A stretch of DNA of 64,000 nucleotides from Raillietiella orientalis (lineage: Eukaryota): positions 372,001 through 436,000 of the forward strand of contig JAYWIR010000054.1 in NCBI GenBank assembly GCA_036172245.1. Reading direction: 5' to 3'. The notes beneath the pieces are model-generated. The model was given only the letters and a program-made list of their open reading frames with translations, had not been told where the DNA came from and ran no database searches. The translations under genes were made by a program, and so were the position numbers. Below, in pieces: positions 1 to 39,900 of the stretch (positions are counted from its first letter, which is position 1; every line of letters starts with the position of its first letter).

Positions 1-3000
1 CCAGCGATCCGGGATTCCCTCTTCGAGTGACCGGTGCAAGAGCAGCAGCAGGGGCCGAGGGCCGATTACGCGCGAATGGTTCGACTCTCCCTCAAGTGGT
101 GAAACGCAGCCGCGCCCGTCGGTTAGCGGAGTGGCGGCGAGAAGAAAACCAACGCAACTCGTGGGCGTGGCGCCGCTTCGCAGGAGAGTCACTTCAGGTC
201 GCGCGTGCTGTGATCCGTGGTCCGGAAGCTGATGAATATTGCCGTTCCCGATCACCGGATTTCGGAAGCCGATGGAGTCCGTGAAGCGATGGATCTTCCT
301 GCGGCCCCTTCCCAAACCCCACAAGGGTGAGAGGCCGTTCTCATCGTCCGATACGGAGGGGCATGTCTCTGAGGTTTGGGGAAACGAAAGCGAAGGAAAA
401 AGGGGAGGTTGCGAGAATCTGCAGGGCGGGCTCCTGCTGAGACCATAACGACGTAGTCCATGCAGAACATCCATCCAACCGCAGGGACAAAAAGGGAGAA
501 AGAGGGATCCGTGCACTTGGAAGGTCTTGAAACAGGCCAGGACCACAGCCTGCGCGAAGCGGAGTCTGGCCAGCATTGGCAAGACGGCCATACTCATCTT
601 CATGGCCTCAGGCAACGACTTTGTTTGTCGAAGGAAGGGGAAACACTGGGAGGGATCGCCATTGTGTGGACTGGCGCTTCCCGATTCTCCAGGAAGAAGG
701 GGAACCGGGAGAAGATTGAGTCGTAGGATCGGAATGGGGGCTGGACGCGCGAGATTGCGTCTGAAGCATCCGGTCCTTGGTGTGTAGCAAAGGGATACGG
801 GAGAAGCGCAGCGTCCTAGCAGCGAGCAGAACTCTCTGGAGCAGATGGCTCGTCCGAGGTGGCTGGGGAAGGGATGCAGCTGCGCATCGTCTAGACACGC
901 GGTTCGCTTACTCGAAAGGTTGCCTTGCCGCAAGGCAAAAAAAGAAAAGGTCGGCGGACCAACGATTGGCTCGATTGGATGGGCTGCTCACATCCGAAAA
1001 GAGGGTGAGCATGTACGCACGAAGATGTCGCGGTGCCCGACAGCTCGGCAGGGGCATATGCCGAACAAAAATTGGATGAACGCAGCAAGCAAACGGGTAC
1101 GTCGGCAGGAAGTTAAGAGCTGGACCGCCGCCACGGTTCCTTGGTCACCAAGGGAGCAGAAAGCATGACTCCAAAAAGCTTCATTATTGCGCTGGGTCGA
1201 GCTGCTGGGAATCCTCGAGTGGCTTCCAGCGCTGAAGAACAACCGAGCCCTCTCCTGAGGTGGATAGAGACGGCACTTCAGCCGTTGCACTGGAGTCTGC
1301 CATGCAACTCCCGCCGGTCTCACTGGACCCGGGGGGCTGTTGGCCCGAACTGCTGCAGGTGCGGGGAACGAGAATCCAAGCTCGCGCACCTGCTCGTAGA
1401 CTCGTATTCTTCTGTGGTTGCGTTGCGCAACGACCCTTGGTGCACCAACGGACCATCCCACGGACGTGATAAGAGCCTGTGAGCGACGCCCTTTGCCTGC
1501 CGTATGCTCAGCACCTCTTTGCAACCTATGTGGGATTATAGCAGCCTGGAGCTACTCGAGAGGAGGGCAGTGAGATAGGGACGCTGCCTGCTTCGTCCTG
1601 CACTTCCTGCGGACGGCAGCTAGATGACCCGCCTGGTGCATACTCGGATGGAACTTGCCGCCATCCTGGAAAGGATGCAGATGACGCCCTTCACCACCCA
1701 ATGAACGCTTCCCAATCGCTCCAAAAGTTTTGCATATATACATTTTTTTATCTTTATTTTTGTTCTTCCCTCCCCCTCCGCTGCCGAGACGAACCTCGCC
1801 GGCCTGCGTGTCGGTTACTCGGCAGGCTGCGAACTCTTTCGGACGTTGTAGGGCCGATAACCCTACACGTGTTTGTTTGTTATTTTTTACAATGAACGCC
1901 TCGGCTCTAACGAGTGTTGATCCAGAAGCTACCAGCGAGCTGAGAAGCTGCAAACTGATTTGGACCCTGGCCTGCAAGATTAAGGAACCTCCCGGGCAGC
2001 CGCCTGCCACTCCCACGCTGTCGCGAAGAGCGCAATGGGGGCACCTCCCGCAGCTGCGCAGGCAGCGAGGCGAGGTGCCACGTGAAACCGAGGGAAGGAC
2101 AGGGAGGGGAGTTGCAACTCACGAACGTGGATTCCTTCATCGCTGTCCCCCCTTTTTTGGCGATGCTGCGACGCCTGGAGGTGCTACGAGCGCATTTCCA
2201 CAGCCCGCTGCGAGCGAGGGCAGGAATCCTTGCCGATCGGAAACACACGCATCCTTCTCCCTCGTCGCCACCAAAGACCATCGGCAAAGATATGCTGAGG
2301 CGGACACTCCCCAGGCGCGCGGCGCTCGCGACGCCTTCGGCAGTCTTTCGCATCTCCATGCGAGTTGCTCGCCACAGAAATGACGGCACGGACAAAATAC
2401 TTTGGAAATGGCGGTGGTGCCATAAAAACGGATTGCCCTCATCCCGTTGAGAACATTTCCGCCTCCGGAAGGCATCCTCGAATTCATGGTTTGTTGACGT
2501 CGGACAAGGCGAAGAGACGCGGTCCGAGAAAAAATCAGAGGGAATTGCAGGCGATTTCCTTTTCAACACGTTGGTGTGCTTGCGCTGCTGGCCCTTCGGA
2601 AGGATTGGGTGCAGCTCTCCCCAGCGGAAGAGACTTTCGGGCACGACACTGCTCCAGGGGCACACACGTCCGTGTCACCAGATCACCCGATGCAGCAGCT
2701 GCAATATCGAATCCAACCATCTCAGTGAAAAAGCTCAGCCTTTTACAAACACCGGCTGAGACCACGTGCAGAAGAGTCGCAAGGAACGAGACGGGAGGCG
2801 GATCCATCGCCAGCCGAAGCACCAGGGAACGCCCGGCGACTCAAGAAGAAGCGGAAAGGGAAAAACTCGGAAGAAAGTCCCGCCCAGAGCCCACGCAAAG
2901 GGGCCGCTTCGCTGGGCAGAACGATTTAAAGATTAGCCGCAAAGACGACGCCCGTCTTTCCAGTGGGCGCCTGGGCTCTCCCCTTCTGATGTCAGTGTGG

Positions 3001-3822
3001 GGCGCCGCTCCTAGCGCGCGATTGGCGCCACCGTTCCCGGAGCACAGGGTGGGTCTCCCTTAGATGCGCCAGGTACAAGGAGGTGAGAACCTGAGGAGCA
3101 TTTTCTGGACACTGTTGCTCTCCGGGGAGTTTGGAACCACCTGGGGGCAGCCCTGTTTCTACCGGAAGGCACTCCGGAAGAGTCGCTGCGGCTCCCGTTC
3201 ACACTCAGCGACCCGACGCCGCACCTTCCCCCACCGTGCATTGCACCAGAAGAATCGTGGATTCCTGGAACCTCGAGGAGGAATGCCAGCAAGAACAGTG
3301 CGTCTCTACTGAGATGAAGAATGCGCCCTCTTCTGGAAGAAGTGTCTGTTAAAGCAGCCATGGAAGACAGGCATCAGGAAGTTCTGCAGCCCACTCATCC
3401 ATCTATCCCTTATTCAGTGACTTCATTGCCGCTTACTTCTTATTCACTCGTCTTTCTATCTTTGGCCGATGTCCGTTGCCGGTTGTGTATTCTTCCTCAC
3501 TTGTTGCACTCCTAGAAACATTGCTCCGGAGTCTTGACGTCGTCGTGTTTTGAACCCGTTCGATCGAGAATGGCCGTCGTCGACTTGGAGGCACTCTCGG
3601 ACAAGAGGGATTGCCTGTTCTTGCGCTTGCGGTATGCGGGCGCGCCGCATTGCAACCGCACAAAACGGATGCTGCTGCCACGCCCACAGCACCCTCGCAG
3701 CAAACGAGGGAGTGGTCAGAAGAACCGCGAGCACACGCTGACACGCCAACAATCTTTCGGTTTATTCCAAAGACTTTCCCAATGAATCTATTTCTCCTAG
3801 AGGATGGTTGCTGCTGGAACAT

Positions 3823-5230
3823 TCAACTTTCTTCTTCCGGAATACTGTACTTCGCATAGTTCCACTTCCACAGCATCAACGCTGTGTACATCGTTGCAAT
3901 GGCCGTGTCGTACATGTGGCCAGATATGTCTAAGCGCTCATAGAATTTTTCCTTGAATTGTTCCAGTCTGCAGTTTTGCTCCTCCAATAACTTGTAGACA
4001 TATTCGATAGTTGGTAAGCCTTTTTCATGACACAGTCTCGCTAGTATAAAGTCCATCCCGGGGATGAAGCGTACGTCGTCATTTGCTGTGGCCCTCCACA
4101 TGAAGCGATTGATAACGGGAGTGACTCCGAACTCGGAATTTTTAGATGAATCCAGATACAACAAAAGATGACCGTATACCATGTTCAACTCTTCGTGGAG
4201 CGAATGCAGGTCAGTAGGCACACGCATAAAATCGAACGAGCGAGACGTTGAAGGTGCGGAAATGAGTGCACTATCCGAATCAGTCCTTGCTATGACAGGA
4301 GCACTGACGGCTTCGGTTCTCACAGCTGGGAAGTCAAATTCAAGTGAACTTTCCGAATCAGTCCTTGCTGTGACGGGAGCACTGACGGCTTCGGTTCTCA
4401 CAGCTGGGAAGTCAAATTCAAGTGAACTATCCGAATCAGTCGTTGCTATGACGGGAGCACTGACGGCTTCGGTTCTCACAGCTGGAAAGTGAAATTCAAG
4501 TGTGCATGGAATTCTCGAGGAATAAGATGCTCGAGGTCTTAACATACCTGGAGATGGGCCCCTGAGGGATTTCACGAGTTTTAAAAGTTCAGCTTCATCG
4601 GGTAATAAATAATTGGCGTCATATCTTGCAGAAGAGGCGGATGTGTCGGGACTTGAAATTGAAAGAACTGGAAAACTCGGTGCTCTGGGAGACGGGAAAC
4701 GAGGTGCCGAGGTCGAAGATGCCTCTAGTGCAACAGCAGCTTCATCGACTCCTGCGACAGGTTTCGATCGACCAACTGGAAGACTCGGTGTTCTGGGAGT
4801 CGGTAGACGAGGTGCCGGGGTCGAAGATGCCTGTGGTTCATCGACAGCAAATTCATCTACTCCTGCGAAAGCAGCAGCATGTTCATCGACTCCTGCGACA
4901 GGTTTCGATCGACCAACTGGACGACTCGGTGTTCTGGGAGTCGGGAGACGAGGTGCCGGGGTCGAAGATGCCTGTGGTTCATCGACAGCAGGTTCATCGA
5001 CTCCTGCGAGAGGTTCCGCTTGAACAACTGGAGCACTGGGAAGCACAACTCCAACTCTACGCGGCCAAGGAACACAGACGCGACGAACGTTTGGAATTTC
5101 CTGCTTCTTCCCACTTTTCGTTCGTGGAGTGCGCTTGGAGATCAAAGGTTTACTGCGAGATCGTGGATTAACACAGGAAACATGCAACCAACTTTTCTTA
5201 CCGTTTTCCAGGGAGTTTAGCAGACTTCAT
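3823..5230 (-). CDS. BAF-like domain protein, subtype A (predicted exons 5230-5202, 5152-4548, 4481-3823; ~430 aa) with Pro/Ser-rich repetitive N-terminus
   Basis: ATG at 5230 (MKSAKLPGKR); CG|GTAAGA...CGCAG 49-nt intron joins in frame to the 454-aa ORF; second candidate intron CAG|GTATGT...TTTCCAG (66 nt). C-terminus FMWRATANDDVRFIPGMD...LCHEKGL...FKEKF...TMYTALMLW keeps BAF motif spacing. Confidence 0.75.
4265..4498. repeat. 78-bp tandem repeat x3 (26 aa, LEFDFPAVRTEAVSAPV...) inside gene A
   Basis: Units start at 4265, 4343 and 4421; single copy in the paralog at 32654-33653. Confidence 0.95.
4680..5010. repeat. 111/141-bp intragenic tandem repeats (AGVDE...ASSTPAPRLPTPRTPS) inside gene A
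   Basis: ttcatcgactcctgcga recurs at 4741, 4882 and 4993; 252 bp extra relative to the paralog. Confidence 0.93.
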
Positions 5231-6308
5231 AGTAAAAGTAAGCGGAAGAGGGAAGGAAGGAGGCACAAGCTATAGAGAAATGATGAATAAGGTTTCCAAG
5301 GAAACCATATAGTTGGTATTCCACGTGTTAGCTTGCTCACTGACCTTCGCTTCTACGATAGCAACGTTTCACCTCCGGTACAAGTTGCGCTAATAATGTG
5401 TAACCCGAGGGATTCCGAGGCCATCCAGTACGGCGTTGATGACTTTAAGGACGATGGCCAGGGTGGTCTCTATGCTAACAATGGAGTGGCGGTGCTGTCC
5501 TCTGGAAGAAGCGTGGCCCCATGCCATCTCAGGGAGGACAGCGTTACCCCTTTTTTAAGAACGTTTCGTTTGCTTCGACTGTGAAGTAGTATTCTGCAAT
5601 CTGCTTGAGGGCTGCGAGGACTTCCGTGAAGGGCGCAAGGGGTCCTGAGCTCTCTTGTGTTTTCAGGGTGCCGGCATATGTGGCGCCGGTTTCCTAGCTG
5701 GAAACCGGGCTTTCCTTTCGTTAGTCCCGGCATGTGAGCGAGCAGTACTCCCGGCCAACTTTCAGCGGCTCCGCAGCACGCGATCGGAGCACTTCGTAAG
5801 TTCAAGAACGGGATTTACATCAGTGCTAGGGTCAAGAGACGTACCTTGAAACAGGAGAACTCGTGCCGGATGTGCAATCTCTCCTTTCACATCTTCTGTT
5901 TTGCAGCCAGCCATTCTCCTCCGGCGCACGAACACCTACATCTGACGGAAGGAGACAGTTCCAACGTAGGGCGATCAGACGAGACCCGCGAGTGAGGTGA
6001 CCAAGTGCCGTCAACACGGCCAGAATGCCGAAAGATCCGTGATGGCGGTGGGCAGTGGGCTGCAGTCCTGCTCGCGAGTCGACCTCTTTGCCGCAACAGG
6101 GTATTCCGCTTCCGGGATCTTTGGCACCTGCCAACCGGAAACGTAGGAGGTATCCTGCGCGATCTAGGAGGCTCTGCTGCGGGACAGCTCGCTAAAGCCG
6201 CAGACGAGGTCACCTCTCGTGGAGAGCTTGCACTTCAAGGAAAACTCCTCAGCGTCCCACCGAAAGTGCCGGAGGTCTCCGCAGTGATGGTGAAGACCTG
6301 CCTTTCCT

Positions 6309-17700: not shown

Positions 17701-17900
17701 TAAGGTTTCTCCTTGCGGTTCTTTTCCGCTTGATGACCAACTCATCCAGTTAACGCTTGAGAGCGTCATGGGCAGAGGTTTGCATCATGCTCAAGCGACT
17801 GTTTCCACAGGGCAAGGTGGAAGAGGTGTAGCGCAGCAGAAGCAGCAGAGCTCCCGAGAAAGGGGGTCCAGGCCCAACGCCCACGAAGAGTGGCTGCTGC
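14784..17900 (-). mobile_element. Decayed RLE-type non-LTR retrotransposon (NeSL/Utopia/R4-like) with poly(A) tail
   Basis: RT motifs AWIDF...SVPH, GVRQGCPLSGLLF, LAYADDV, GLQINPSKC, LAPWQK (16426-17238); ETPAHVICHC knuckle, RHSRVV and IVVGSLGTW endonuclease motifs (15257-15760); T-run at 14784-14806. Frameshifted; 5' boundary uncertain. Confidence 0.88.
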
Positions 17901-18491
17901 GCCGAGCGGAAAACAAGAAGGTTCCACGCAAAGACATCGTCCGTCCATCGTTTCCCACGGACGCCATGGCTCTGGTCCTTCTGGTAGCAGCGTGACGCGC
18001 CACTCCTGGAGTGCGGGGATTACGCGAGCGATCGGCGCCGCCGTTTTTGATGCACACGGAGCCCCTCACTGCAGATGCGCTAGGCAAACGGTGAGGAGAG
18101 GGTGCAGAACGTTCCCCTGGAGTCTGCTGTGCCCACGCGGACAGCGCCCTCACCGCAATCGGGCTGGCGCTCAGAAGTGCGAACGCACGCTGACACTCCA
18201 ACGGCCCTCTTCCAGTTGACCCCAAAGACTTTTCCCAAGGTCTCCTTTCCCCAGCGGGAGATGGATAGTCGGGACAGCAGCGGTGTGACGTCCCTTCTCG
18301 ATGCCCTCTGAAAGCTTCACACGAAGAGCGCCCGTCGTGTCGGAAGCACCGTGGAGTCCTTTCTGAGGTCTTGGCCGCTGGAGGAAGACAGGGAACACTG
18401 CTAAGAAGGTGATTGCGGGCTGCCACTGCTGAATCATGCGGCAAACTCTGGGCGTGGCACTGGATTTTTCTTTCGGTATTTCTTTTTTTTT

Positions 18492-22800: not shown

Positions 22801-23154
22801 TGCAGAAGGAAAATGTTTACCCCGAAGTGGCAGCAGTTGACGTTGCTAATATCGTAGCACAGCCCAGTCCTCACACGATGAGGAGAGGGATTATCCTCCC
22901 CCTACGGTGCCATATCCTTTTTCTCCTCACGTCATCATCGTCGCCTTCTGGATCGGCTCCTGAGTCCTCCAGCAGCATAGATGCAGTGCTGTTTGAGCAC
23001 AGGGAAAGTCGTTGCTTTGGGAAGGGTGTGCGCCGTTGTTTAAGTGCTCAGTCGGAGGACTCAATTGTTTTGGTTTCCAAGGAGACGATCTTCAGCACTG
23101 CTCTATCGGAACTGTTCGCTTCCTCCTTCCTCTTACTTACTCACCTTGGCAGCT

Positions 23155-23995
23155 ATGGATCCCCGAAGACGGTATGAAAGGGTCTGTGCGAATGTCCGAT
23201 ACTAATCCACCATTCCATAGTGCTCTTGATTATTCTTCACTCCCTGGAACTCGTGGTGCACCCAGTGTTCTATCCAGTCCTACTCATCGTGATGTACCCC
23301 ATCGTGGTGTACACCATCGTGGCTCTCCAGTACGGCGTGCGCTCCACTTTGAACCCGATGATCCGACCCCTAGAGTCGTTACACCGTCACCCGGAGCATC
23401 CTTGGTCCCACACTTAGTCCAAGGGAACCCTTCAATCAGAATTCATAATCCTCCTCCTTCGAGATCTCATGTTGATATGGTCCTGGCTACACCTCCTCCC
23501 ATGAGGCTGGCATCCCAAGCCACCATTCCGGAAGCATTCGTGGAGGATGACAGCGTTGAAATAGTACGCTGCGCAAGAAGAATAGATAGCATACAGAGGC
23601 ACGCGTCGACGTTGCTTCTCCCACCTCCATTCAAGCCAGACATAGTGGTGTCCAGATTGCACGACTTCAAGGAACAGGCATTTCCTAACCTAACCGTAAG
23701 AAGTATTCCAGGAATCGACTCAAGATTTTGCCAGATGCTCAGAGACAAGGGCTATGAGACCATCGGACACTTGTACACATTACTGGAGGAAAATCTTTTC
23801 GATTCGATTTTGTTCGAGGAGTCCCTGGAGGACCTGAGAGTGCACACGAATTTCCTTACGATCGTCAAAACCATGTATACAGCTTTGATGTTGTGGAAGT
23901 GGTACCACACAATGAAAAGACTTCCGCGAACTAATACCCGAGATTACAGAGCACATCTCGTCAAAAATTTGAAAAAACGAAGAACGAATCAATAA
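23155..23995 (+). CDS. BAF-like domain protein, subtype D (exon 23155-23171, intron 23172-23220, exon 23221-23995; ~263 aa)
   Basis: MDPRRR exon; GTATGA...TACTAAT...CATAG intron joins in frame. HDFKEQAFPNLTVRSIPGIDSRFCQMLRDKGY...DSILFEESLED aligns gap-free with BAF [32 protein letters not shown]...DEDLFREWLKD; AATAAA overlaps the stop. Confidence 0.82.
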
Positions 23996-24789
23996 ATCAA
24001 TTAAGAAAGCTTTTGGTGTGAATAGGCATAGGGCCCTTGGCGCATCAGGTGTGCCGGAAATTCCCTGCAGATCACTCCGTCGTTTGCAGTGGGAGTTTCG
24101 ATAGTGCAGGAGTGCGTCGGTGCCTGAGGTTGCCGCGACGTGAACGGGGTCAATCCGTGACGACGGAGGTTCCCGTGCATCAAGGCTTCTTTCTTGATAC
24201 CAGCGCACATGTCAATCACATCGTCGCTTCTCATGCCCATGAGAAGCGCTCCCTCCGCCCGCGTCCTGAGAAGCCACCGAGCCTTGGGCCGGGAGTACTG
24301 CGTGCTCAGGAGCTGGGGCTCAGGGAAGGAGAACGCGACTGGCAGTTAGGAAAGCCGTTGGTATGAAAATCCGCTCCTTCCACACCAGCAGACAGTCCTC
24401 CCCGTTACTGTTCACCGAGGTCCCCGCAGCCCTCACGCAGCGTCCAGGACACAGCCAGCCCGCGGGAAGCAACGAAATGCTCTCCTTCCCGAAGCGCCAG
24501 GAGGCGACGCTGCTTACCAAGGACAGCTCCGTCCCTCGGCGATAAGCAGAGAAGGCACTCTGGCCGTCCTCCACCACATCATCATCGCCGTTCATGATGG
24601 CGTCGGAATCCCTTTGGCAGCACATATGCGGCGCCACATGCGCACGTGGAAAGGCGTTGCTGTCGTAAAGGCGAACTCCATCATCCAAGAGGACACTTTG
24701 CAAACCAAATGCGTGGTTTCCAAAAAGACCTTCTTCATTACTGCTTTATCGCTAGCGTTTCCTTCTTTCTTCCTCCTACTTTTGCCGCG

Positions 24790-25763
24790 ATGTCTCACCG
24801 AAAAGCTGGACCAAGGTAAGGAAAGGCAGTTGCAAACCTCCTATATTAATCCACCATACCATAGTGATTGCAAAGCAACTCTTAGCGGAGATGCCGCAGC
24901 AGGTCCCACTGCAATTCTCAGGTCCTATGCTCCCAGTGCGTCTTCACATTTAAATTTGCCTACAGAACGCAGTCCGATCGCTTCTGCAGAACACCCCACT
25001 ATGCCGATTACATCCCATTCTTCAAAAGCCATGCCATTCCCAGTGAGCTCTCTATTACAGAAACCTTTGGAAAACACCCTGACTACCTTAGATCACTTGA
25101 AATGTTACCGGATTTACCAGAAACTGCTGAATGCTTTGCAGCAAGAACATCATCTCCGGCAAGCTCAATGAAGGAATCATGGAGCATACGATTACCGTCC
25201 ACATTCAGGTATCGACCTTATGTAAGCACACGAAGGAGTGAAATCTTTTGTGGTTTCTTCACCACACCCACTTCTTCCAAAGGTGAAGAAGTTTTCGAAC
25301 CTCGTGACATCTCATTAGACCCACACCCATAGGATATCCTTTGAAGAGCGAAAGTCCGGGATACCCTCTGAGTGACCATTTCCAAGTGGAAATCTTCCAG
25401 CAACCTCTAAGGGCATTGGCATGTTGCAACCTGAAAGCGAAGCTGAGGACGTTTCGCTTTTCACCTTCCAGACGGCCCTACCGGCGCGGAACCTCACAGA
25501 CATATCCAAAGGAATTTGTCGGGAACGAGTGGGAATCTCTAGATGGCCTCGGAAAAGGAATCCAAGACATAAATGAATTGTCATCTCACAATTCATCTAT
25601 GTCGGCATTCATTTACGAACAATCATCAGACGAAGAATAGGAAGCTGTTCATCGTAGAACTCGCCACCATCTCCCGACAGGAAAAGAATTTGCAGCTTGC
25701 CAATGGAAAACACTGAAGAGATGGATAGCTTTACTGAGGGAACCACGCCTGACAGAGCTGTGA
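24790..25763 (+). pseudogene. BAF-like family subtype B, frameshifted with an internal stop
   Basis: Exon 1 MSHRKAGPS, 49-nt intron 24816-24864; C-terminal TSQTYPKEFVGNEWESLDGLG...*...ACQWKTLKRWIALL resembles BAF TSQ...SLAGIG...DCFGCLREW. Confidence 0.6.
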
Positions 25764-28700
25764 ACTATAAAGAAGCGACTCCTTTACTGCTCAAAGAAAT
25801 AGAAAAGCAAATCTAAAACCACATCGGGGGCCACGCTCTCAGGTTGCTACATGATTCAGCTGTAACGGCACGCAATCCCTGGCCAATCACCTTCTTCGCA
25901 TTGGTCCCTGTCTTCCTGCAACGGGGAAGACCTCAGAAAGGACTCCACGGGGCTTCCGAAACGACTGACGCTCTTAGTGTGAAGCCTTCAGAGGGCATCG
26001 AGAAGAGACGTCACACGGCTGCTGTCCGGACTATCCATCTCCCGCTGGGGAAAGGAGACCTTGGGAAAAGCCTTTGGGATCAACAGGAAGAGCGCTGTCG
26101 GCGTGTCAGCGTCTGTTCGCACTACACCCAAGCGCTCGTCCGTCGGCGATGAGGGCGTTCTCTGCGTTGCGGCGAATTGCGTCTCGCGTGGTTCCAGGTC
26201 AGCGAGTCAGTCTACCGCAGGGGCAAGAACAGGCAAGCTGCATCCCCCGAGGGTGATTCCAAACGGATGCTGACCGTTCTCGATCGAACCATCCTTGAGC
26301 CTATGACGACCATAAGGTTGCAGAAAACGTTCGCGACAGTCTAAACAGCAAGGAAGAATGGCAACACACTTCCGACAAAGGTGGAAAGGGGTATGAATAA
26401 GAAAGAAGAGGCGATGCAGAAGTCATCGAATAAGAAAGAGATAAGTGGGGAAGTTCCGGCGCTCAATGAATTCTAACCTTCTTGGCTCCTTCACCGATTC
26501 TTCCGGATGAAGACGCAGTCCTCGTCGCCGAGAGAAAAAGGCATAGTTTCCTTTCTGGAGCGCCTATTCGGTGTTTCGGGACGACACCATGCCGCTGTCG
26601 CCACCCAGATTCGGGGAAGCAGGTGAAAACATGTCTTCATCTGAGGCACCGCCGCTGCAGCTCTTCGTAATGGACCGGAAGAAGGGTTCCTGCAGCGTGC
26701 GTTCCGGAATATCAAGCTGGTGAGATTTTTGCAGCGAAATGGATGCTGACAATCATCGTCATTGTCACCAAAGAAGGAGACGATGCGAAGATGACGTGAT
26801 TGCTCGGCACCATTTGCTGCTCGTGTCAAGTTCTGACCAACCTCTTGCGATCAGTTTTCCTTGGAGACGCGTCGAACGATCTTTGCAAGTGCGTTATTCA
26901 CCGACGTTCCTTCTTAACATGCCGAGGTCGGTTTCCTCGGCAGGGAGGACTGCGGCGCTCACCACGCGGTGTGCATGCCCACCCACCACGTGGGTGGGGA
27001 TGTGGGAATCCATCGGTGGGTTGACCTCTGTCGTTGTCTTGTCGTTTGAACGTTGGAGCGCGAGACGCTGTGCGGCCACAGCGCTGTGGGAGCTCTTTCG
27101 CACCCTACGCCGTGCCATGGGTTGCCTTCCGTGAACACAAGGGGTGCAGGCAGTCTCCGCAGGTGGCTCTCCAATAAAACGGAATAAAAAGAAGTTCCAT
27201 CGCGATGCAGAGCAAACTCCACGCCCAACATCGTGGACCAATTACAACGTCGCGATGAATACCGGGAACTGGAATTATTTTCCTGGAAGTATGCCACTCC
27301 CTCTTACAGGAAATTCTCTTCTCTTCATGGATTGTGCTGCCTTCGGTCGCTTGCGGGAACGTTCGGTCAAAGGCCGCGGGCTCGAAAACGATGGGTCACG
27401 GGAGTGTGCAACCTAGCGGGATGCATTCTTGCGAATGTACATTCATAAGGTACAGGCGTTGAGTATAAGAGGATAGCGACCCAGTATTATTCATGATGCC
27501 GTGATGTCATTTTGGAGACGCAAATCGTCTCTTCGCGGAGGCACTGCGATGGCCCGGGTGCCACGTGAACCGTGGATGGGAGCTCCAGGCACGTTCCACA
27601 GCTTGACGAGCAGGATTCCCGATGGAAGAGGATCCTGACAGATGCACGCAGAAGGATTCATTCTAGTGTCCTCCGTAGAATGTCCGAAACCACATGCTTG
27701 CCCAATCGCTGATTGTTTCAGAGATACCAGCTCGTGACTGCAGCGACATCCGGCAACAACAGCCATTTGGGAAGCCACCGGGAGCAGCTCTGACTGCAGG
27801 AAAATTGCACCACCAGGGAGCAAAGTCGGAAGTTCGCTTGATGCGTCTTTAAAATCCTTGGGGTGCCATTAGGATCAATCCTTCATCTTCATCCGTTCGT
27901 CGTTCATTCCTCTCGAAAGATCGCCGGGAGAGCGCTGAACGAGTGCTGTGGACGACAAGGACGCACGAAGGTCAATAAACGGACAGTGGATTCCCCGTTC
28001 TGGGTGAGCTCTCCGTGAGATGTTTCCCTCCTTTCAGCTTCTGAGAAGCCGCAAGAACGAGTCGGTTCATTGCTCTCCGCAACGAGTTGGAGATCGGGGA
28101 CTTCTGCGAGGCCAGGCAGCGGGCAACGGCCGACGTCAAAGGCGCGAAAGACAAACGCTCGCTGAAGCGCACTGAAGGAGCGTTGCCGGACTCCTGCTGG
28201 AAGCGCCCCAATTCCAAGATGGCTGCGCAGATCCAATCCCCCCCTCCCGTCTATTGGGAATGCGCTTCCCGTTCCAGGAAACGAGCGCCTCCAAGTGTCG
28301 GCTCTGTCTCTCTAGTCGCAGCACAACAACCATTCGGAGAGGTTTCGGGAATCGCGTGGACACGGGAAGGAAAACGCGATACCCGTAGCAGAAGAACGTG
28401 ACCGGCCGTTATGAACTGACCACCGCCTGTGCAACGTTTCGACACGGTTGTACGAATGGGGCGTTCGCAACGGCGCTTTCTCCAGGAAGGTTTCCATTGC
28501 GGATGCGCCCACATCTGGCGAAGACGCAAAGTGAACGATCCGGATGGCCTGTGGGAACGTTGAGAGAAGAAGGTGCACATGCGTCCTGAAGGCTTTACTC
28601 CACCCGTCTCGCGCGTTCAAACTGCACAGAGGAGGACGCCAGCCATCGAAGGAGTGGTTCGAGAGGAATCCCCCAGTGCATCCGCTTTTTCCGAATGAAA

Positions 28701-30586
28701 CCCGGCGTTGGCGTCCGTGTGGTTTCGATCTGCACGCGTGGCACCACCAAGCGTCGCGGGCTCGAATTTCACTGCAGGGAGGGTGTTCACCCAGGAATGG
28801 GTGCGTTATGCGTATGTATGACCTTCATGGGCGTATTTAGGAGCAGCGCCGGCGCAAGCTGGAAGACCGATGCCTCCTTTGACTGGAGTAGTTTGCCATC
28901 AACCTTGCAAAGTCCTTCACGGAAGCAGGGACGCAGTGACCGTCTGGAAGTGAAAATGGAGTTCTCCATCGCGTACCGTGCTGTTGGTGAATTGAGGCGA
29001 AGGCGAAAGAGCACTCTAGGCTATCACCTTCGCTCCGGAGACGGAGTCGACCGGTCAAAGAGGGAGCTGCTCCGAGCAACTTTCAGAAGTACCGCAGAGT
29101 CACCTGCACTCCCTCTGGTGCCAGGCAGGCACGAGCACGCGTGGGAAGCACCCTGGGGTACATGCTGTCCGCATTCAGTATGTGAGAAAACGCTTTCGGG
29201 CAACTCCGAAAACCCTGCTGATCCCTCGATGTGGCGGCCGGGTAGGCTCGCTCTGTCCACCCAGGGAGTGTCGCTCGAGAGATCCTTCGACCTGCCACGC
29301 ACGCGAGCACCACGAGCTGCTAGGTTGCGGCATTCGGTGCGGCGTGAGTGGGGGGCAGCGCGAGTTGGTGCCAGAGGACAAACCGCAGGAATGCCTCGGC
29401 GCGTGCCGAGGCGACAGGGCCTCGTCTGGAGCGTCTCCGCTGCTGCCCTCCAGCAGGAGCTTCCTTTCGCCTCCGAAGCGCGTGCGAGCGGCGGAGAGCA
29501 AGACGGAGGGACTCAGCATCCTGGCGCCGGGAACAGGGAGCAGCAGCAGATCCTTTCGAGGTGGAGTGACGTTGAAATTCGAGGAGGACCGTGAGCGGCG
29601 GCACGGAAGGTTGGCCCCCGCGCGAGGTCCCGACGCTCACGGCCGGCTAGGAAGCGATGGCGCCGTTGCATCTGGCGACGGAGACCGCACGAGGTCGTTT
29701 CCAATCCCGCGGACGTCCGTACTCACCTACTTCTGGCAACAACGTGAAAGGTCGCTGCTCCTTGCACGGGGAAACTTCGCGGGCGATCGGCGCCGCCCTT
29801 TTCGGAGCACAGGAAGCGCCTTCCTTGAAATGCGCCAGGCATGGCGACGTGAATGGTTGCGGAACCTTCTCCTGGGCTCCAGTGTTCTTTCTGCAATGTT
29901 TGGGATCATCTGGGGGTAGCCCTGCTTCTATCGGAAAGCCCTCCGGAAGAGTCGCTGAGGTGCCGACTCACCCTCGGCAACCCTCCTCGTGCTTCCCCGA
30001 CCCTGAGTTGCGCCAGAGGCATCGTGTCGTCCCGAAACTTCGAGGTGGAGCGCCACCAAGAACAGCGGGCCTCTTTCCGTTGGACTGCGACTCCATCTGG
30101 AAGAACTGGTGAAGAAGCCATGAAAGACGGACTTTATTGAGTGCCGGAGTCCCGTAATCCATCTCCTTCTTATTCACTGACTTCTTCGTCGCCTGTTCCC
30201 TCTTATTCATCCTGTTTTCTTCCTTTGGACGATGTCCGCTGCCAGCGATGCGTTCTTTCTCTCTTGTTTGACGCCTGGAAACATAGCTCTGGCGTCTTGT
30301 TGTCGTCTGTCTTGAACCCGTCCGATCTACAATGGCCGTCATCTGCTTGAAAGCACTCTCGGACAGTGGGGATTGCCTATTCTGGGCCCTGCGGTGCACG
30401 GAAGCCCTGCTGTGCAACCACGCAAAACGGAAGCTTTGCCCGTCTTCACAGCAATCGAGGTAGCTCTCAGGAGAACCGCCAGCACACTCTGACGCGCCAA
30501 CGGTCCTCTTCCAGTTCATCCCAAGGACTTTCGCAGTGACTTCATTTGCCGACCCCGCGTACAGCGGAGGGCTGCTGCTGGAACAT

Positions 30587-31620
30587 TCAGTGCCCTTTTC
30601 GAGGTAAGCGGTGCTTCGCCTGGTAACACTTTTACAGCATCCACGTTGTGTACATGCATGCAATGGCGTGTCGCATCTGGGATGCAAGTAGCCTATGTGT
30701 CAAGATAGGGCGTCCTTGAATCCTTCCAGTAGAAATTTTCTTGATTCCAGCAACCTCTATATGCTCCCGACATTTCGCAGCCGTTGCTCCTGGAAACGTT
30801 GCACAAGTGCGAAGTCTACCCTGTAGAAGGTGTCTGCATCGTCTTGCACGCTGGCCTTGCACCTGAGATGATCGATTGAGGGAGTGATCTCGTACTCGGG
30901 ATTTTTAGATGAATCCAGAAACGACGAAATGTGAGTGGTAGACGACAAGCACTCCTTTTTTCATTGAATGCAGTTCATCAGGCGGACGCACAAATTCGAA
31001 TGAGGATGAGGAAAGCAATGCACGCTTCCATGGAGACCTTGGTGTGCCGGGTGCACTGACGGTTTCAGGTCCTCCAGATAGAAGAGGAAATTCAAGAGGA
31101 TGGAATACTGGAGGAACAAGATGATGGAATCCTGGGTGTACGACCCAATTTAATGGCGATGTACCATGCAACTGCAGTCCAGAGAGGAATCAATACTTTA
31201 ATGACTCGCTGTAAGAGTGATCTACTAAAAAATGGAACATGAAGTTCATCTCGAGCAGAACCTACGGATGCAGTGGCGAGCGCAGAAGTACAAAGAACAG
31301 GAGCATTTAGTGTTGTCAGTGGTGGAAGAAGAGATGGAACAGGCGAAGGCGCCTGTCGTGGAGGTTCTGCTCCACGACGCCCTGAGCTGTGTTCGGCAGG
31401 ACGAACAGGAGCACGAGGTCGTGAGCGCCGGCCTCCAGTTGTGGGTGCTGCACGCTGCCATGGAACACAGACGCGAAGACCGTTTGCAATTTGCCCCTGG
31501 GCTCCATTAAGAGACGGAGGACGCATCATGTCCAAGGGTTCACTGCGAGATCGAGAATTAACATAGGAAACATGCCTCTAACTTTTCTTACCGTGTTGCA
31601 GCGTGTTTAGCAGACTTCAA
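30587..31620 (-). pseudogene. BAF-like family subtype E (A-related), pseudogene
   Basis: 5' end homologous to gene A but ATG reads TTG; 49-nt intron 31591-31543; RVCVPW and FEFVRPPDELHS...FLDSSKNPEYEITP retained; frameshifts and stops in the BAF region. Confidence 0.75.
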
Positions 31621-31769
31621 GCTAAAAGTAAGCGGAAGAGGGAAGGAAGGAGGCACAAGCTGGAGAGAAGTGATGAATAAGTATCCAAGGAAGCCATATA
31701 GTTGGTATTCCACGTGTCCGCTTGCTTGCTGGCCTTCGCTTTTACGAAAGCAACGTTTCACATCCTGGG

Positions 31770-34700
31770 CGGAAGCGGAAGACCCGGCTGCGGCAAAGAG
31801 GTTGACTCGCGGGCAGGACTGCAGCCCTCTGCCCACCGCCACCGCAAATCTTTCTGCATTCTGGTCGTGTTGACGGCACTTGGTCACCTCACTCGCGGGT
31901 CTCGTCTGATCGCCCTACGTTGAAACTGTCTCCTTCCGTTAGATGTAGGTGTTCGTGCGGCGGAGGAGAATGGCTGGCTGCAAAACAGAAGATGTAAAAG
32001 GAGAGATTGCACATCCGGCACGAGTTCTCCTTTTTCAAGGTGCGTCTCTTGACCCTAGCACTGATGTCAATCCCGTTCTTGAACTTACGAAGTGTTCCGC
32101 TCGCGTGCTGCGGAGCCGCTGAAAGTTGGCCGGGAGTGCTGCTCGCTCACATGCCGGGACTAACGAAAGGAAAGCCCGGTTTCCAGCTAGGAAACCGACG
32201 CCACATATGCCGGCACCCTGAAAACACAAGAGACCTCAGGACCCCTTGCGCCCTTCACGGAAGTCCTCGCAGCCCTCAAGCAGATTGCAGAATACTACTT
32301 CTCCGTCGAAGCAAACGAAATGTTCTTAAAAAAGGGGTAACGCTGTCCTCCCTGAGATAGCATGGGGCCACGCTTCTTCCAGAGGACAGCACCGCCACTC
32401 CATTGTTAACATGGAGACCACCCTGGCCATCGTCCTTAAAGTCATCAACGCCGTACTGGATGGCCTCGGAATCCCTCGGGTTACACATTATTAGCGCAAC
32501 TTGTACCGGAGGTGAAACGTTGCTATCGTAAAAGCGAAGGTCAGCGAGCAAGCGGACACGTGGAATACGAAGTATATGGTTTCCTTGGAAACCTTATTCA
32601 TCATTTCTCTATAGCTTGTGCCTCCTTCCTTCCCTCTTCCGCTTACTTTTACTATGAAGTCTGCTAAACTCCCTGGAAAACGGTAAGAAAAGTTGGTTGC
32701 ATGTTTCCTGTGTTAATATACGATCTCGCAGTAAAACTTTGATCTCCAAGCGCACTCCACGTACGAAAATTAGGAAGAAGCCGGAAATTCCAAACGTTCC
32801 TCGCGTCTGTGTTCCTTGGCCGCGTAGAGCTGGAGTTGTGCTTCCCGGTGCTCCAGTTGTTCAAGCGGAACCTGTCGCTGGAGTCGATGAACCTGCTGTT
32901 GCACGAGAGGCATCTTCGACACCGGCACCTCGTCTCCCGACTCCCAGAATACCGAGTGGTCCAGTTCTATCAATTTCAAGTCCCCACACATTCGCCTCTT
33001 CTGCCCGATATGACCCTAATTTTTTATTACCCGATGAAGCTGAACTTTTAAAACTCGTGAAATCCCTCAGGGGCCCATCTACAGGTATTTGAAGTCCTCG
33101 AGCATCTTATTCCTCGAGAATTCCATGCGCACTTGAATTTCATTTTCCAGTTGCCGGAGCCGAAGCCTTCGCTGCTCCAGGCATAGCAAGGGATGAAGCG
33201 GAAGGTCCATTCATTCTTGCACCCTCAACGTCTCGCTTGTACGATTTTGTGCGTGTGCCTACTGACCTGAATTCGCTCCACGAGGAGTTGAACATGGTAT
33301 ACGGTCATCTTTTGTTGTTTGTGGATCCATCTGAAAATTCCGATTTCGGAGTCACTCCCGCAATCAATGACTTCATGTTCAGTGCGTCAGCGGAGGACGA
33401 CGTACTCTCCATCCCCGGAATGCACGTTACACTAGCAAGACTGTGTCATAATGAAGGCTTATCAACTATCAACTGTATCTACCAGGTATTGAGATTGGCA
33501 AACTACAGACTGGAGCGATTCAAGGAAAACTTATATGAGCGCTTAGACATATCTGGCCACATATACGACACGGCCATTGCAACGATATACACAGCGTTGA
33601 TGCTGTGGAAGTGGAACTATGCGAAGCACAGTGTTCCGGAACCACATCCTTGAATGTTCCAGCAGCAACCCTCCTTTAGGAGAAATAGATTCATTGGGAA
33701 AGTCTTTGGAATAAACCGAAAGATTGTTGGCGTGTCAGCGTGTGCTCGCGGTTCTTCTGACCACTCCCTCGTTTGCTGCGAGGGTGCTGTGGGCGTGGCA
33801 GCAGCATCCGTTTTGTGCGGTTGCAATGCGGCGCGCCCGCATACCGCAAGCGCAAGAACAGGCAATCCCTCTTGTCCGAGAGTGCCTCCAAGTCGACGAC
33901 GGCCATTCTCGATCGAACGGGTTCAAAACACGACGACGTCAAGACTCCGGAGCAATGTTTCTAGGAGTGCAACAAGTGAGGAAGAATACACAACCGGCAA
34001 CGGACATCGGCCAAAGATAGAAAGACGAGTGAATAAGAGGTAAGCGGCAATGAAGTCACTGAATAAGGGATAGATGGATGAGTGGGCTGCAGAGCTTCCT
34101 GATGCCTGTCTTCCATGGCTGCTTTAACAGACACTTCTTCCAGAAGAGGGCGCATTCTTCATCTCAGAAGAGACGCACTGTTCTTGCTGGCATTCCTCCT
34201 CGAGGTTCCAGGACTCCACGATTCTTCTGGTGCAATGCACGGTGGGGGAAGGTGCGGCGTCGGGTCGCTGAGTGTGAACGGGAGCCGCAGCGACTCTTCC
34301 GGAGTGCCTTCAGGTAGGAACAGGGCTGCCCCCAGGTGGTTCCAAACTCCCCGGAGAGCAACAGTGTCCCGAAAATGCTCCTCAGGTTCTCACCTCCTTG
34401 TACCTGGCGCATCTAAGGGAGACCCACCCTGTGCTCCGGGAACGGTGGCGCCAATCGCGCGCTAGGAGCGGCGCCCCACACTGACATCAGAAGGGGAGAG
34501 CCCAGGCGCCCACTGGAAAGACGGGCGTCGTCTTTGCGGCTAATCTTTAAATCGTTCTGCCCAGCGAAGCGGCCCCTTTGCGTGGGCTCTGGGCGGGACT
34601 TTCTTCCGAGTTTTTCCCTTTCCGCTTCTTCTTGAATCGCCGGGCGTTCCCTGGTGCTTCGGCTGGCGATGGATCCGCCTCCCGTCTCGTTCCTTGCGAC

Positions 34701-37475
34701 TCTTCTGCACGTGGTCTCAGCCGGTGTTTGTAAAAGGCTGAGCTTTTTCACTGAGATGGTTGGATTCGATATTGCAGCTGCTGCATCGGGTGATCTGGTG
34801 ACACGGACGTGTGTGCCCCTGGAGCAGTGTCGTGCCCGAAAGTCTCTTCCGCTGGGGAGAGCTGCACCCAATCCTTCCGAAGGGCCAGCAGCGCAAGCAC
34901 ACCAACGTGTTGAAAAGGAAATCGCCTGCAATTCCCTCTGATTTTTTCTCGGACCGCGTCTCTTCGCCTTGTCCGACGTCAACAAACCATGAATTCGAGG
35001 ATGCCTTCCGGAGGCGGAAATGTTCTCAACGGGATGAGGGCAATCCGTTTTTATGGCACCACCGCCATTTCCAAAGTATTTTGTCCGTGCCGTCATTTCT
35101 GTGGCGAGCAACTCGCAGGGAGATGCGAAAGACTGCCGAAGGCGTCGCGAGCGCCGCGCGCCTGGGGAGTGTCCGCCTCAGCATATCTTTGCCGATGGTC
35201 TTTGGTGGCGACGAGGGAGAAGGATGCGTGTGTTTCCGATCGGCAAGGATTCCTGCCCTCGCTCGCAGCGGGCTGTGGAAATGCGCTCGTAGCACCTCCA
35301 GGCGTCGCAGCATCGCCAAAAAAGGGGGGACAGCGATGAAGGAATCCACGTTCGTGAGTTGCAACTCCCCTCCCTGTCCTTCCCTCGGTTTCACGTGGCA
35401 CCTCGCCTCGCTGCCTGCGCAGCTGCGGGAGGTGCCCCCATTGCGCTCTTCGCGACAGCGTGGGAGTGGCAGGCGGCTGCCCGGGAGGTTCCTTAATCTT
35501 GCAGGCCAGGGTCCAAATCAGTTTGCAGCTTCTCAGCTCGCTGGTAGCTTCTGGATCAACACTCGTTAGAGCCGAGGCGTTCATTGTAAAAAATAACAAA
35601 CAAACACGTGTAGGGTTATCGGCCCTACAACGTCCGAAAGAGTTCGCAGCCTGCCGAGTAACCGACACGCAGGCCGGCGAGGTTCGTCTCGGCAGCGGAG
35701 GGGGAGGGAAGAACAAAAATAAAGATAAAAAAATGTATATATGCAAAACTTTTGGAGCGATTGGGAAGCGTTCATTGGGTGGTGAAGGGCGTCATCTGCA
35801 TCCTTTCCAGGATGGCGGCAAGTTCCATCCGAGTATGCACCAGGCGGGTCATCTAGCTGCCGTCCGCAGGAAGTGCAGGACGAAGCAGGCAGCGTCCCTA
35901 TCTCACTGCCCTTCTCTCGAGTAGCTCCAGGCTGCTATAATCCCACATAGGTTGCAAAGAGGTGCTGAGCATACGGCAGGCAAAGGGCGTCGCTCACAGG
36001 CTCTTATCACGTCCCTGGGATGGTCCGTTGGTGCACCAAGGGTCGTTGCGCAACGCAACCACAGGGGAATACGAGTCTACGAGCAGGTGCGCGAGCTGGG
36101 ATTCTCGTTCCCCGCACCTGCAGCAGTTCGGGCCAACAGCCCCCCGGGTCCAGTGAGACCGGCGGGAGTTGCATGGCAGACTCCAGTGCAACGGCTGAAG
36201 TGCCGTCTCTATCCACCTCAGGAGAGGGCTCGGTTGTTCTTCAGCGCTGGAAGCCACTCGAGGATTCCCAGCAGCTCGACCCAGCGCAATAATGAAGCTT
36301 TTTGGAGTCATGCTTTCTGCTCCCTTGGTGACCAAGGAACCGTGGCGGCGGTCCAGCTCTTAACTTCCTGCCGACGTACCCGTTTGCTTGCTGCGTTCAT
36401 CCAATTTTTCTTCGGCATATGCCCCTGCCGAGCTGTCGGGCACCGCGACATCTTCGTGCGTAGATGCTCACCCTCTTTTCGGATGTGAGCAGCCCATCCA
36501 ATCGAGCCAATCGTTCGTCCGCCGACCTTTTCTTTTTTTGCCTTGCGGCAAGGCAACCTTTCGAGTAAGCGAACCGCGTGTCTAGACGATGCGCAGCTGC
36601 ATCCCTTCCCCAGCCACCTCGGACGAGCCATCTGCTCCAGAGAGTTCTGCTCGCTGCTAGGACGCTGCGCTTCTCCCGTATCCCTTTGCTACACACCAAG
36701 GACCGGATGCTTCAGGCGCAATCTCGCGCGTCCAGCCCCCATTCCGATCCTACGACTCAATCTTCTCCCGGTTCCCCTTCTTCCTGGAGAATCGGGAAGC
36801 GCCAGTCCACACAATGGCGATCCCTCCCAGTGTTTCCCCTTCCTTCGACAAACAAAGTCGTTGCCTGAGGCCATGAAGATGAGTATGGCCGTCTTGCCAC
36901 CGCTGGCCAGACTCCGCTTCGCGCAAGCTGTGGTCCTGGCCTGTTTCAAGACCTTCCAAGTGCACGGATCCCTCTTTCTCCCTTTTTGTCCCTGCTGTTG
37001 GATGGATGTTCTGCATGGACTACGTCGTTATGGTCCCAGCAGGAGCCCGCCCTTCAGATTCTCGCAACCTCCCCTTTTTCCTTCGCTTTCGTTTCCCCAA
37101 ACCTCAGAGACATGCCCCTCCGTATCGGACGATGAGAACGGCCTCTCACCCTTGTGGGGTTTGGGAAGGGGCCGCAGGAAGATCCATCGCTTCACGGACT
37201 CCATCGGCTTCCGAAATCCGGTGATCGGGAACGGCAAGATTCATCAGCTTCCGGACCACGGATCACAGCACGCGCGACCTGAAGTGACTCTCCTGCGAAG
37301 CGGCGCCACGCCCACGAGTTGCGTTGGTTTTCTTCTCGCCGCCACTCCGCTAACCGACGCGCGCGGCTGCGTTTCACCACTTGAGGGAGAGTCGAACCAT
37401 TCGCGCGTAGTCGGCCCTCGGCCCCTGCTGCTGCTCTTGCACCGGTCACTCGAAGAGGGAATCCCGGATCGCTGG
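31770..37475. repeat. Inverted duplication A, right arm
   Basis: Reverse complement of 1-6114; nearly identical over 33654-37475, more diverged over 31770-33653. Confidence 0.97.
32654..33653 (+). CDS. BAF-like domain protein, subtype A' (predicted exons 32654-32682, 32732-33084, 33151-33653; ~294 aa)
   Basis: Inverted paralog of 3823-5230; its only in-frame stop (33090-33092) lies inside a candidate 66-nt GT-AG intron. Confidence 0.7.
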
Positions 37476-39269: not shown

Positions 39270-39900
39270 CCTGTGCTTGCCCCTGCGGTAGACTGACTCG
39301 CTGACCTGGAACCACGCGAGACGCAATTCGCCTCAACGCAGAGAACGCCCTCATCGCCGACGGACGAGCGCTTAGGTGTAGTGCGAACACACTCTGACAC
39401 GCCGACAGCGCTCTTCCTGTTGATCCCAAAGGCTTTTCCCAAGGTCTCCTTCCCTCAGCGGGAGATGGATAGTCCGGACAGCAGCCGTGTGACGTCTCTT
39501 CTCGATGCCCTCTGAAGGCTTCACACTAAGAGCGTCAGTCGTTTCGGAAGCCCCGTGGAGTCCTTTCTGAGGTCTTCCCGGTTGCAGGAAGACAGGGACC
39601 AATGCGAAGAAGGTGATTGGCCAGGGATTGCGTGCCGTTACAGCTGAATCATGTAGCAACCTGAGAGCGTGGCCCCCGATGTGGTTTCAGATTTGCTTTT
39701 CTATTTCTTTGAGCAGTAAAGGAGTCGCTTCTTTATCATTCACATCTCTGTCAGCAGTCGTTCCCTCAGTAATGCTATCCATCGCTTCAGTGTTTTCCAT
39801 TGGCAAGCTGCAGCTTCCTTTCCTTCTCTGCCTGCAGTGTTTTTGTTGATATCGTTGGTGAGAACTTCCTGCAATAGGATGTTTGTAAATGAAAGCCACA
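39270..39900 (-). pseudogene. 3' remnant of a subtype B copy plus shared 3' flank
   Basis: AACQWKTLKRWIALLRE retained; 39270-39815 is a close inverted copy of about 25690-26235. Confidence 0.65.

Follow-up and report, generated by a model that had tools for sequence, protein, structure and literature searches.

Two kinds of described system come closest to the locus reported here. The first is the "peak of divergence" between duplicates under gene conversion (Teshima and Innan 2008), for which exon 5 of the red and green opsin genes is the example; in a review of this work, such a peak is read as selection excluding conversion (PMC3924837). The second is the large, near-identical palindrome that undergoes gene conversion between its arms and carries multi-copy genes, as reported for the mammalian X and Y chromosomes (10.1101/800185, PMC8327919, PMC13616518). 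We analyzed a stretch of 64,000 nt from Raillietiella orientalis (contig JAYWIR010000054.1, positions 372,001 to 436,000; hereafter the window) in which the two arms of a palindrome each carry, at the inner end, one of two inverted gene copies, A and A'. The 3' flanks of the two copies are nearly identical, whereas the gene bodies are strongly diverged, most of all in the last exon, which encodes a domain predicted to have the fold of BAF. The change from one state to the other falls at the stop codon. Divergence peaks in otherwise homogenised duplicates, and palindromes with fast-evolving multi-copy genes, are already known kinds of phenomena. What is new is the case itself: a sharp edge at the stop codon, an orphan family recognisable only by its BAF fold, and palindromes that are interleaved.

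The likeness to the Teshima-Innan peak is that one flank is alike and the coding segment is strongly diverged, including its neutral sites. The differences are several. The peak here is one-sided, is sharp only at the stop codon and extends over an entire gene body (about 2.3 kb). As palindrome arms, the copies are inverted and not tandem, and they are set apart by 43 amino-acid differences in 145 residues and not by two key sites. Furthermore, ongoing conversion is something that we infer here. With the mammalian palindromes, the window shares inverted arms that are >99% identical, a spacer of tens of kb and lineage-specific, fast-evolving members of a gene family. It differs in that two palindromes are interleaved. 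Gene copies in the two arms of a mammalian palindrome are generally as alike as the arms, whereas here the gene is the exception to arm identity. In snake-venom PLA2 and similar genes, exons evolve faster than introns and flanks. The genes described here resemble them in that divergence is higher in the coding sequence than in the non-coding DNA around it, with a ratio of nonsynonymous to synonymous divergence (dN/dS) of about 1 or above. However, dating against a third family member, paralog C, shows that the flank of A and A' is younger and not merely slower.

The window is eukaryotic in look, with a GC (guanine plus cytosine) content of about 50-66% and short GT-AG introns. Self-comparison by BLAST found two interleaved inverted repeats, IR1 and IR2, which follow one another in the order IR1-left, unique, IR2-left, IR1-right, unique, IR2-right. 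The inverted arms of IR1 span 1-6114 and 37475-31770, with inner ends at 6114 and 31770. Its left arm touches the first base of the window and may continue beyond it, and its outer arms are 99.24% identical over 3822 nt. The inverted arms of IR2 (16561-31356 and 64000-49205) differ by 63 mismatches in 14,796 nt (99.57% identity), and this repeat touches the last base of the window. Both are thus palindromes, with long inverted arms >99% identical around a spacer. Two interleaved and very similar inverted repeats could raise the concern of an assembly artefact, in which mirrored arms, or the diverged segment, would derive from mis-joined haplotypes or from collapsed or chimeric repeats. We consider this very unlikely, as the arms differ by scattered substitutions and in-frame repeat expansions, and the gene model of each copy is coherent in itself and set among different neighbours.

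The contrast between gene and flank is large and abrupt. We compared the arms by self-BLAST and MAFFT alignment and counted mismatches over ungapped columns. The left outer arm of IR1 (1..3822) is the 3' flank of gene A, and the right outer arm (33654..37475, from self-comparison and alignment) is that of A'. These flanks (1-3822 versus 37475-33654) have 29 mismatches in 3822 columns (0.76%). The last 145 codons (3826-4260 versus 33650-33216) differ at 65 of 435 bases (14.9%; Fisher p 4.6e-44 against the flank). In the encoded proteins, 43 of these 145 residues are replaced (70% identity), and both frames are open. A two-rate change-point analysis placed the 3' boundary at 3799/3800, with a support interval of two log-likelihood units (3786-3826) that contains the stop codon (3823-3825), and the step lies at most about 25-37 nt beyond the stop. 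There are 8 differences within the final 24 coding bases and 2 within the 23 bases after them, and then come 362 bases that are the same in both arms. Upstream, divergence persists: it is 9.5% at 4501-4700 and 4.3% at 5001-6100. The N-terminal codons are 7.3% diverged, the introns differ at 7 of 115 positions, and the 5' flank of A, from the gene to the inner end of the IR1 arm (5231..6114, minus strand), differs from that of A' at 36 of 884 (4.1%). What is diverged is therefore the gene body, which measures about 2.3 kb and lies at the arms' inner end; exon 3 is its peak, with a sharp 3' edge.

An earlier note, made from the sequence, had drawn attention to this region, and our counts agree with most of what it described: some 3.8 kb past A and A' that differ only by scattered substitutions, about 135 final codons with roughly 40 replaced residues, a concentration of replacements in the BAF-like region (31 of the 43 fall within residues 49-106, inside the portion modelled as the BAF fold) and an abrupt change at the stop. 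Its picture of an island between near-identical arms holds on the 3' side and fails upstream, where the arms stay diverged. Mismatches within the flank are themselves unevenly distributed: up to 794 nt pass without any (p 0.03), and a 1250-nt window, chosen post hoc, holds a single mismatch (p 0.004). This unevenness fits several conversion tracts of different age. Two other accounts of the profile were rejected. An edge effect, with less conversion near the spacer, does not match a divergence that peaks in exon 3 (14.9%) and drops to 2.9-7.0% in 5231-6114. A young mobile element that had inserted independently past the stop does not match paralog C, which shares the same flank across the stop.

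Both copies are intact genes. We derived their gene models from the sequence together with an alignment of the 5' regions of five loci. Gene A, on the minus strand, has exon 1 at 5202..5230 (ATG at 5230-5228), which encodes a basic N-terminus, and intron 1 at 5153..5201 (49 nt; 2 of 49 mismatches to the A' intron). Exon 2 (4548..5152) is Pro/Ser/Thr-rich and of low complexity, and intron 2 (4482..4547; 66 nt, GT-AG) has 5 of 66 mismatches to its A' counterpart. Exon 3 (3823..4481) ends with the stop codon, and its last 145 codons make up the BAF-fold domain. Gene A', on the plus strand, has exons at 32654..32682, 32732..33084 and 33151..33653, with introns of the same lengths (49 and 66 nt), an AG acceptor at 33149-33150, the BAF-fold domain at 33216-33650 and the stop at 33651-33653. 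The two copies share splice sites and phases, each with an ATG and two GT-AG introns at matching places. The spliced open reading frames (ORFs) are complete in both, and encode 430 amino acids (aa) in A and 294 aa in A'. The protein layout is also shared: a basic N-terminus, a repetitive Pro/Ser/Thr-rich middle and the C-terminal BAF-fold domain. The basic N-terminal stretch looks like a nuclear localisation signal.

All coding indels between A and A' are multiples of three. Tandem Repeats Finder reported two in-frame repeats that are present in A (minus strand) and have no equivalent in A': a 78-nt unit (26 codons) in 3.1 copies at 4265..4502, and a 141-nt unit in 2.0 copies at 4730..5009, within exon 2. 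When 111 random substitutions were placed in the 294-codon frame, it stayed open in 1.8% of 20,000 trials; the figure for the last 145 codons was 6.9%. Taken together, the intact starts and splice sites, the in-frame indels and the low odds of an open frame (0.018) argue against two decaying copies. The 78-nt coding repeat of A also carries the 3' splice site of intron 2 (4298-4485, minus strand): a 32-mer that bears the acceptor is present in three exact copies, 78 nt apart. These three identical, in-phase candidate acceptors could yield isoforms with one, two or three of the 26-residue units. Each stop is followed, at a distance of 57 nt, by AATAAA, a candidate poly(A) signal within the near-identical zone (33710..33715, plus strand, for A'; mirrored at 3761-3766, minus strand, for A).

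The gene body and its 3' flank differ in age. Synonymous differences number 19 in 211.5 sites over the 294 aligned codons (dS 0.096), about 12 times the flank (p 6e-13). The last 145 codons show the same excess, with 10 in 93 sites (p 1e-8, more exactly 1.3e-8); for arms of the flank's age, the expected number there would be about 0.7. The introns (7/115; p 6e-5) and the 5' flank (p 4e-11) are likewise above the 3' flank. Divergence of synonymous and intron sites far above the 0.76% of the flank means that coalescence of the gene body is older than that of the flank. Comparison with paralog C corrects for differences in rate. Measured against C, divergence in the exon is 1.63 times that in 809 nt of flank; measured between A and A', it is 14.9 times that in the same flank. 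Expressed as the ratio of the A-A' distance to the distance of A or A' from C, the exon stands at 0.301 and the flank at 0.033, a 9.1-fold difference that makes the flank younger than the diverged segment. The flank was therefore homogenised, or copied afresh, after the genes had diverged. Because synonymous divergence is about 12 times that of the flank, selection on a young copy cannot explain everything, and we reject the picture of selection acting alone on near-identical arms.

Local hypermutation of the transcribed or coding region on a young duplicate, by transcription-coupled or editing-type damage, could also raise all site classes in the gene, which are indeed highly diverged, and could account for an excess of adjacent and multi-hit changes. 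We judge it extremely unlikely. The mutational spectrum equals that of the flank (transition fraction 0.45-0.51 versus 13/29), the untranscribed 5' flank is raised too (36/884), and the 3' untranslated region up to the AATAAA lies in the low zone. The 9-fold excess over the rate calibrated with C speaks against it as well.

Tests for selection gave moderate support for a dN/dS above 1 between A and A'. By the method of Nei and Gojobori (NG86), the last 145 codons have 10 synonymous differences in 93.2 sites and 55 nonsynonymous differences in 341.8 sites (dS 0.116, dN 0.181, ratio 1.56). All 294 aligned codons have 19 in 211.5 and 92 in 670.5 (dS 0.096, dN 0.152, ratio 1.58), and the N-terminal 127 codons have 7 in 101.2 and 21 in 279.8 (dS 0.073, dN 0.079, ratio 1.09). 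A purpose-written pairwise Goldman-Yang likelihood for the two sequences gave maximum-likelihood (ML) estimates of the same ratio, omega, of 2.02 for the domain (likelihood-ratio statistic 4.1-4.2, p 0.04), and 1.91 over 294 codons (6.78, p 0.009); exon 3, with 167 aligned codons, reached 2.23 (p 0.01), and the N-terminal part 1.21 (p 0.66). Synonymous changes are also too few. Simulated random mutation, conditioned on open frames, led us to expect 29.1 +/- 4.5 of them over the 294 codons, compared with 19 observed (p 0.012), and 16.7 in the last 145 codons, compared with 10 observed (p 0.015).

The earlier note had offered diversifying selection with escape from conversion, or else a conversion tract that ends at the gene. 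Both halves are needed, and neither is enough alone. It had also named a dN/dS at or below 1 as the outcome that would count against selection; the ratios lie at 1.56-1.58 by NG86 and 1.91-2.23 by ML, with a weaker signal at single-hit codons (p 0.106). As for its fallback of nothing but an older duplication with a converted flank, the high synonymous and intronic divergence agrees with it and a dN/dS in excess of 1 does not.

The explanation that we favor, and to which we give about an even chance, is that A and A' are an old inverted pair of paralogs in a converting palindrome, and that their coding region escaped homogenisation under positive or diversifying selection. On this account, the paralogs, with a synonymous distance of about 0.10, would sit at the inner ends of palindrome arms that arm-to-arm gene conversion keeps alike. 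The 3' flank would have been homogenised recently, to 0.76%, and the coding region would not. Selection might have removed converted alleles that erase amino-acid differences during a time when it acted on the protein in a positive or diversifying way. Beyond about 10% coding divergence, the density of mismatches could itself keep heteroduplex out of the coding region and so sharpen the edge to the coding end. Synonymous and intron sites within the gene would have diverged by hitch-hiking with the escape. We infer that conversion, and not one late copying event, made the flanks alike; that selection blocks conversion in the gene, and that mismatches add a barrier, are postulates of the same scheme.

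Several findings weigh against escape from conversion under selection. Some concern the shape of the profile. Theory for selection opposing conversion predicts a decay of divergence over roughly the length of a tract, and not a step within 40 nt; a sharp edge thus needs the added idea of a mismatch barrier, or one recent tract that ended there by chance. With 4.1% divergence, the 5' side has escaped homogenisation and the peak is not truly two-sided, whereas the published model predicts a peak that is softer and two-sided (PMC3924837). Moreover, the IR2 pairs show no island, with 0 mismatches in the BAF part of paralog D, 0 in C and its flank, and 5 in the N-terminal part of D. The absence of an island in these pairs means that the A/A' contrast is particular to that pair and not general in the palindromes of the family. 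Other points concern the selection signal, which comes from two sequences. The N-terminal 127 codons reach only about 1.1-1.2. Single-hit codons taken alone (14 synonymous and 57 nonsynonymous, with a neutral synonymous share of 0.269) give a one-sided p of 0.106. Multi-hit codons are in excess (19 versus 12.7 expected, p 0.019), the omega above 1 partly rests on them, and mutations that change several nucleotides at once could look like selection. Over the last 145 codons, differences are spread nearly evenly over codon positions (26/18/21), with 33 transitions and 32 transversions. Codons with an amino-acid change match random expectation, both over 294 codons (76 versus 76.0) and in the last 145 (43 versus 44.9).

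The even codon positions, the balance of transitions and transversions, the random proportion of changed codons and the single-hit result are what a neutral history would also produce. In such a history, the genes would be old duplicates under relaxed constraint, one or more recent conversion tracts would have homogenised the 3' flank and ended at the stop by chance, and there would be no diversifying selection. High synonymous and intron divergence fits this too, and paralog C shows that members of the family decay. However, both ORFs and all four splice sites are intact, against a probability of 0.018 that the frame stays open through 111 random changes, and every indel is in frame. Omega is significantly above 1 by ML (p 0.009-0.04), synonymous changes are in deficit (p 0.012), and the edge falls within 40 nt of the stop although at least 3.8 kb of flank was available to it. 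We therefore regard a neutral history as rather unlikely.

BAF is a small protein that stands alone, assembles into a homodimer and bridges double-stranded DNA, and it is known as a highly conserved, single chromatin and antiviral factor. The C-terminal domain of A and A' resembles it in predicted fold and gives no significant match to it in sequence. The Pfam profile SAM_BAF (PF02961) did not match A or A' even at E <=10. Paralog D gave a sub-threshold match (E 0.1; 13.6 bits versus a gathering cut-off of 25), in which its residues 19-58 align to profile positions 6-45. A profile of A, A' and D searched against the sequences in the PDB found no BAF chain at E <=10, and its top match there, DNA ligase 4 (E 0.026), was taken as chance. 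A word-indexed search with the 167-aa exon product, in which 35 candidates of near lengths only were scored, gave none at E <=0.01. An exhaustive search of 1.84 billion representatives with an A+A' profile gave none at E <=0.001, in libraries that may not include the proteome of the source organism. The best match in the ESM Atlas, a bacterial DUF1780 cluster (feature score 0.91, 161 shared features, low recognition), was likewise taken as chance.

The predicted structures agree with a BAF fold. AlphaFold2 models were built on 3-sequence alignments. The model of A has a mean predicted local distance difference test (pLDDT) score of 63.8, with 1 of 5 models above 50, and its residues 51-130 score 67-89 in 10-residue blocks. 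The model of D reaches a mean of 81.0, with 4 of 5 models at least 78.5. When each was compared by VIA-align with 48,161 chains, the BAF chain 9j8m_K ranked first for both. For A, the match had Z 12.6 and a root-mean-square deviation (rmsd) of 2.1 A over 88 of 88 residues, with the next chain at Z 6.4; for D, Z was 12.6 and the rmsd 1.9 A over 87 of 88 residues, with the next chain at Z 7.4. In Foldseek, BAF chains fill the top 8 of 378 rows with a target template-modelling (TM) score of 0.68-0.70, but the E values are weak (0.12-0.59). The structural register and the weak Pfam register are concordant (offset 12-13), and an invariant IPG turn aligns with positions 23-25 of the SAM_BAF profile, in a region that we take to be the helix-hairpin-helix DNA contact of BAF. 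On the strength of these models, we accept the domain as a predicted BAF fold, a remote relative at best, and do not file it as a member of the Pfam family. The label "BAF-like", which the region had been given beforehand, is thus supported by the predicted fold (Z 12.6 in two models) and stays below the Pfam threshold. Compared with BAF/BANF1 and BAF-L/BANF2 (PF02961; PDB 9j8m, 7z21, 6ghd, 1ci4, 2ezx), the C-terminal roughly 90 residues superpose on the whole BAF chain. The differences are that the domain here closes a protein of 294-430 aa with a long disordered N-terminal part, whereas the matched BAF chains have 86-89 residues; that sequence similarity to BAF is below significance for A, A' and D; and that the family here is multi-copy and fast-evolving.

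The domain probably binds DNA. The distribution of replacements on it is uneven. The most changed helix (residues 85-93 in A numbering, with 6 of 9 residues changed) is one that we presume to correspond to the dimer interface of BAF, and the last helix has only 2 of 21 changed. Thirty columns are invariant in A, A' and D, including the IPG turn and a TALMLWKW helix, and these invariant residues beside a variable patch show constraint. D covers 39 of the variable sites and at 25 of them is different from A as well as from A', so these positions vary across the family. If helix 85-93 is the dimer interface, the two paralogs may have been pushed into giving up pairing with each other or into recognising different targets. 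We speculate, tentatively, that A and A' belong to a lineage-restricted family of nuclear BAF-fold DNA-binding proteins that was amplified in interleaved palindromes and is in conflict with viruses, retroelements or drive elements, such that selection keeps A and A' different against arm-to-arm conversion. We consider this rather unlikely. A partial literature search found no description of an expanded or fast-evolving BAF-like family, only general papers on BAF, BAF-L and poxviruses. A diversifying BAF-like family would point to conflict-driven use of the BAF fold.

If escape from conversion under selection is the true account, the locus would offer a clean case from nature in which selection keeps two copies of a coding sequence different although the palindrome around them converts, with an edge of unusual sharpness at the stop codon. 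It could then be used to measure how sequence divergence limits conversion tracts. If instead the history was neutral, or if one arm received a patch of sequence from elsewhere, the contrast would be an ordinary by-product of repeat dynamics.

The possibility of such a patch depends on the other members of the family. Searches by tblastn found six copies of the domain in the window: A, A', C, C', D and D'. Paralog D (22997..23995, plus strand) has an open frame, and its C-terminal 131 aa model as the BAF fold (domain at 23600-23992). The BAF-fold part of its twin D' (56569-56961, minus strand) is identical to D over 131 aa. The D protein is 35% identical to A and 31% identical to A'. Paralog C, with its flank (29779..31096, minus strand), lies head to head with A' and has 67.6% DNA identity to 3014-4344; self-comparison places its twin C' at 49465-50782 (plus strand). 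Both C and C' are pseudogenes, with frame breaks, an internal stop and ATG changed to TTG. Between C and A, the 3' flank is better preserved (70-75% identity) than the exon (60-62%).

A 5' module of A, A' and C recurs at two other loci, E (around 24.7 kb) and F (around 19.9 kb). The module consists of an upstream region, a first exon of 9-10 codons and a 49-nt intron, and its copies are 66-81% identical among A, A', C, E and F. They lie at about 5160-5545, 32366-32717, 31452-31765, 24476-24857 and 19779-20194, with mirrors at 55704-56148 and 60367-60782. A tblastn search of the downstream exons of E and F found no BAF-like domain. The arrangement suggests that a common promoter and first exon may have been reused by different genes. 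The inner ends of IR2-left (31356) and IR1-right (31770) are 413 nt apart, within the head-to-head promoter region of C and A'.

Given a multi-copy family of this kind, together with the loci that share its 5' module, the arms could be young throughout (about 0.8%) and the gene body of one arm could have been overwritten by ectopic conversion from a third, diverged member outside the window, with the edge marking the end of donor homology. Consistent with such an import, the divergence forms a single block from the 5' flank to the stop, and the differences are clustered (16 adjacent pairs versus 9.5 expected, p 0.015). However, the window holds no donor. Of the 65 variable sites, C agrees with A at 30, with A' at 20 and with neither of them at 15, without long runs, and the D protein has only 31-35% identity. 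Derived states occur in A as well as in A', which does not favor the overwriting of one arm. In addition, homology between C and A continues for >800 nt beyond the stop, so family homology does not generally end there. We consider an imported patch unlikely.

The remainder of the window holds mobile sequences. An intact ORF of 1203 aa (45365-48976, plus strand) encodes the endonuclease and reverse transcriptase of a non-LTR (long terminal repeat) retroelement, with Pfam matches to Exo_endo_phos (4.3e-16) and RVT_1 (7.9e-23). It sits in the spacer and stops 229 nt ahead of the inner end of IR2-right. Pfam searches of 88 other ORFs, taken from the 175 of at least 110 aa that start below 49300, found no family at E <=1e-4, and Rfam gave 0 matches over the whole window. 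A reverse transcriptase fragment is present at 16426-17253 (minus strand). A dispersed repeat of 179 nt occurs in six copies with 92-94% identity and in both orientations (10909-11087, 18180-18358, 25941-26119, 39384-39562, 54442-54620 and 62203-62381). It resembles a short mobile element, and some copies are embedded in larger versions of about 370-575 nt. Finally, a segment upstream of gene A (6668-7244) is 82% identical to segments downstream of locus E (25038-25580 and 54981-55523).

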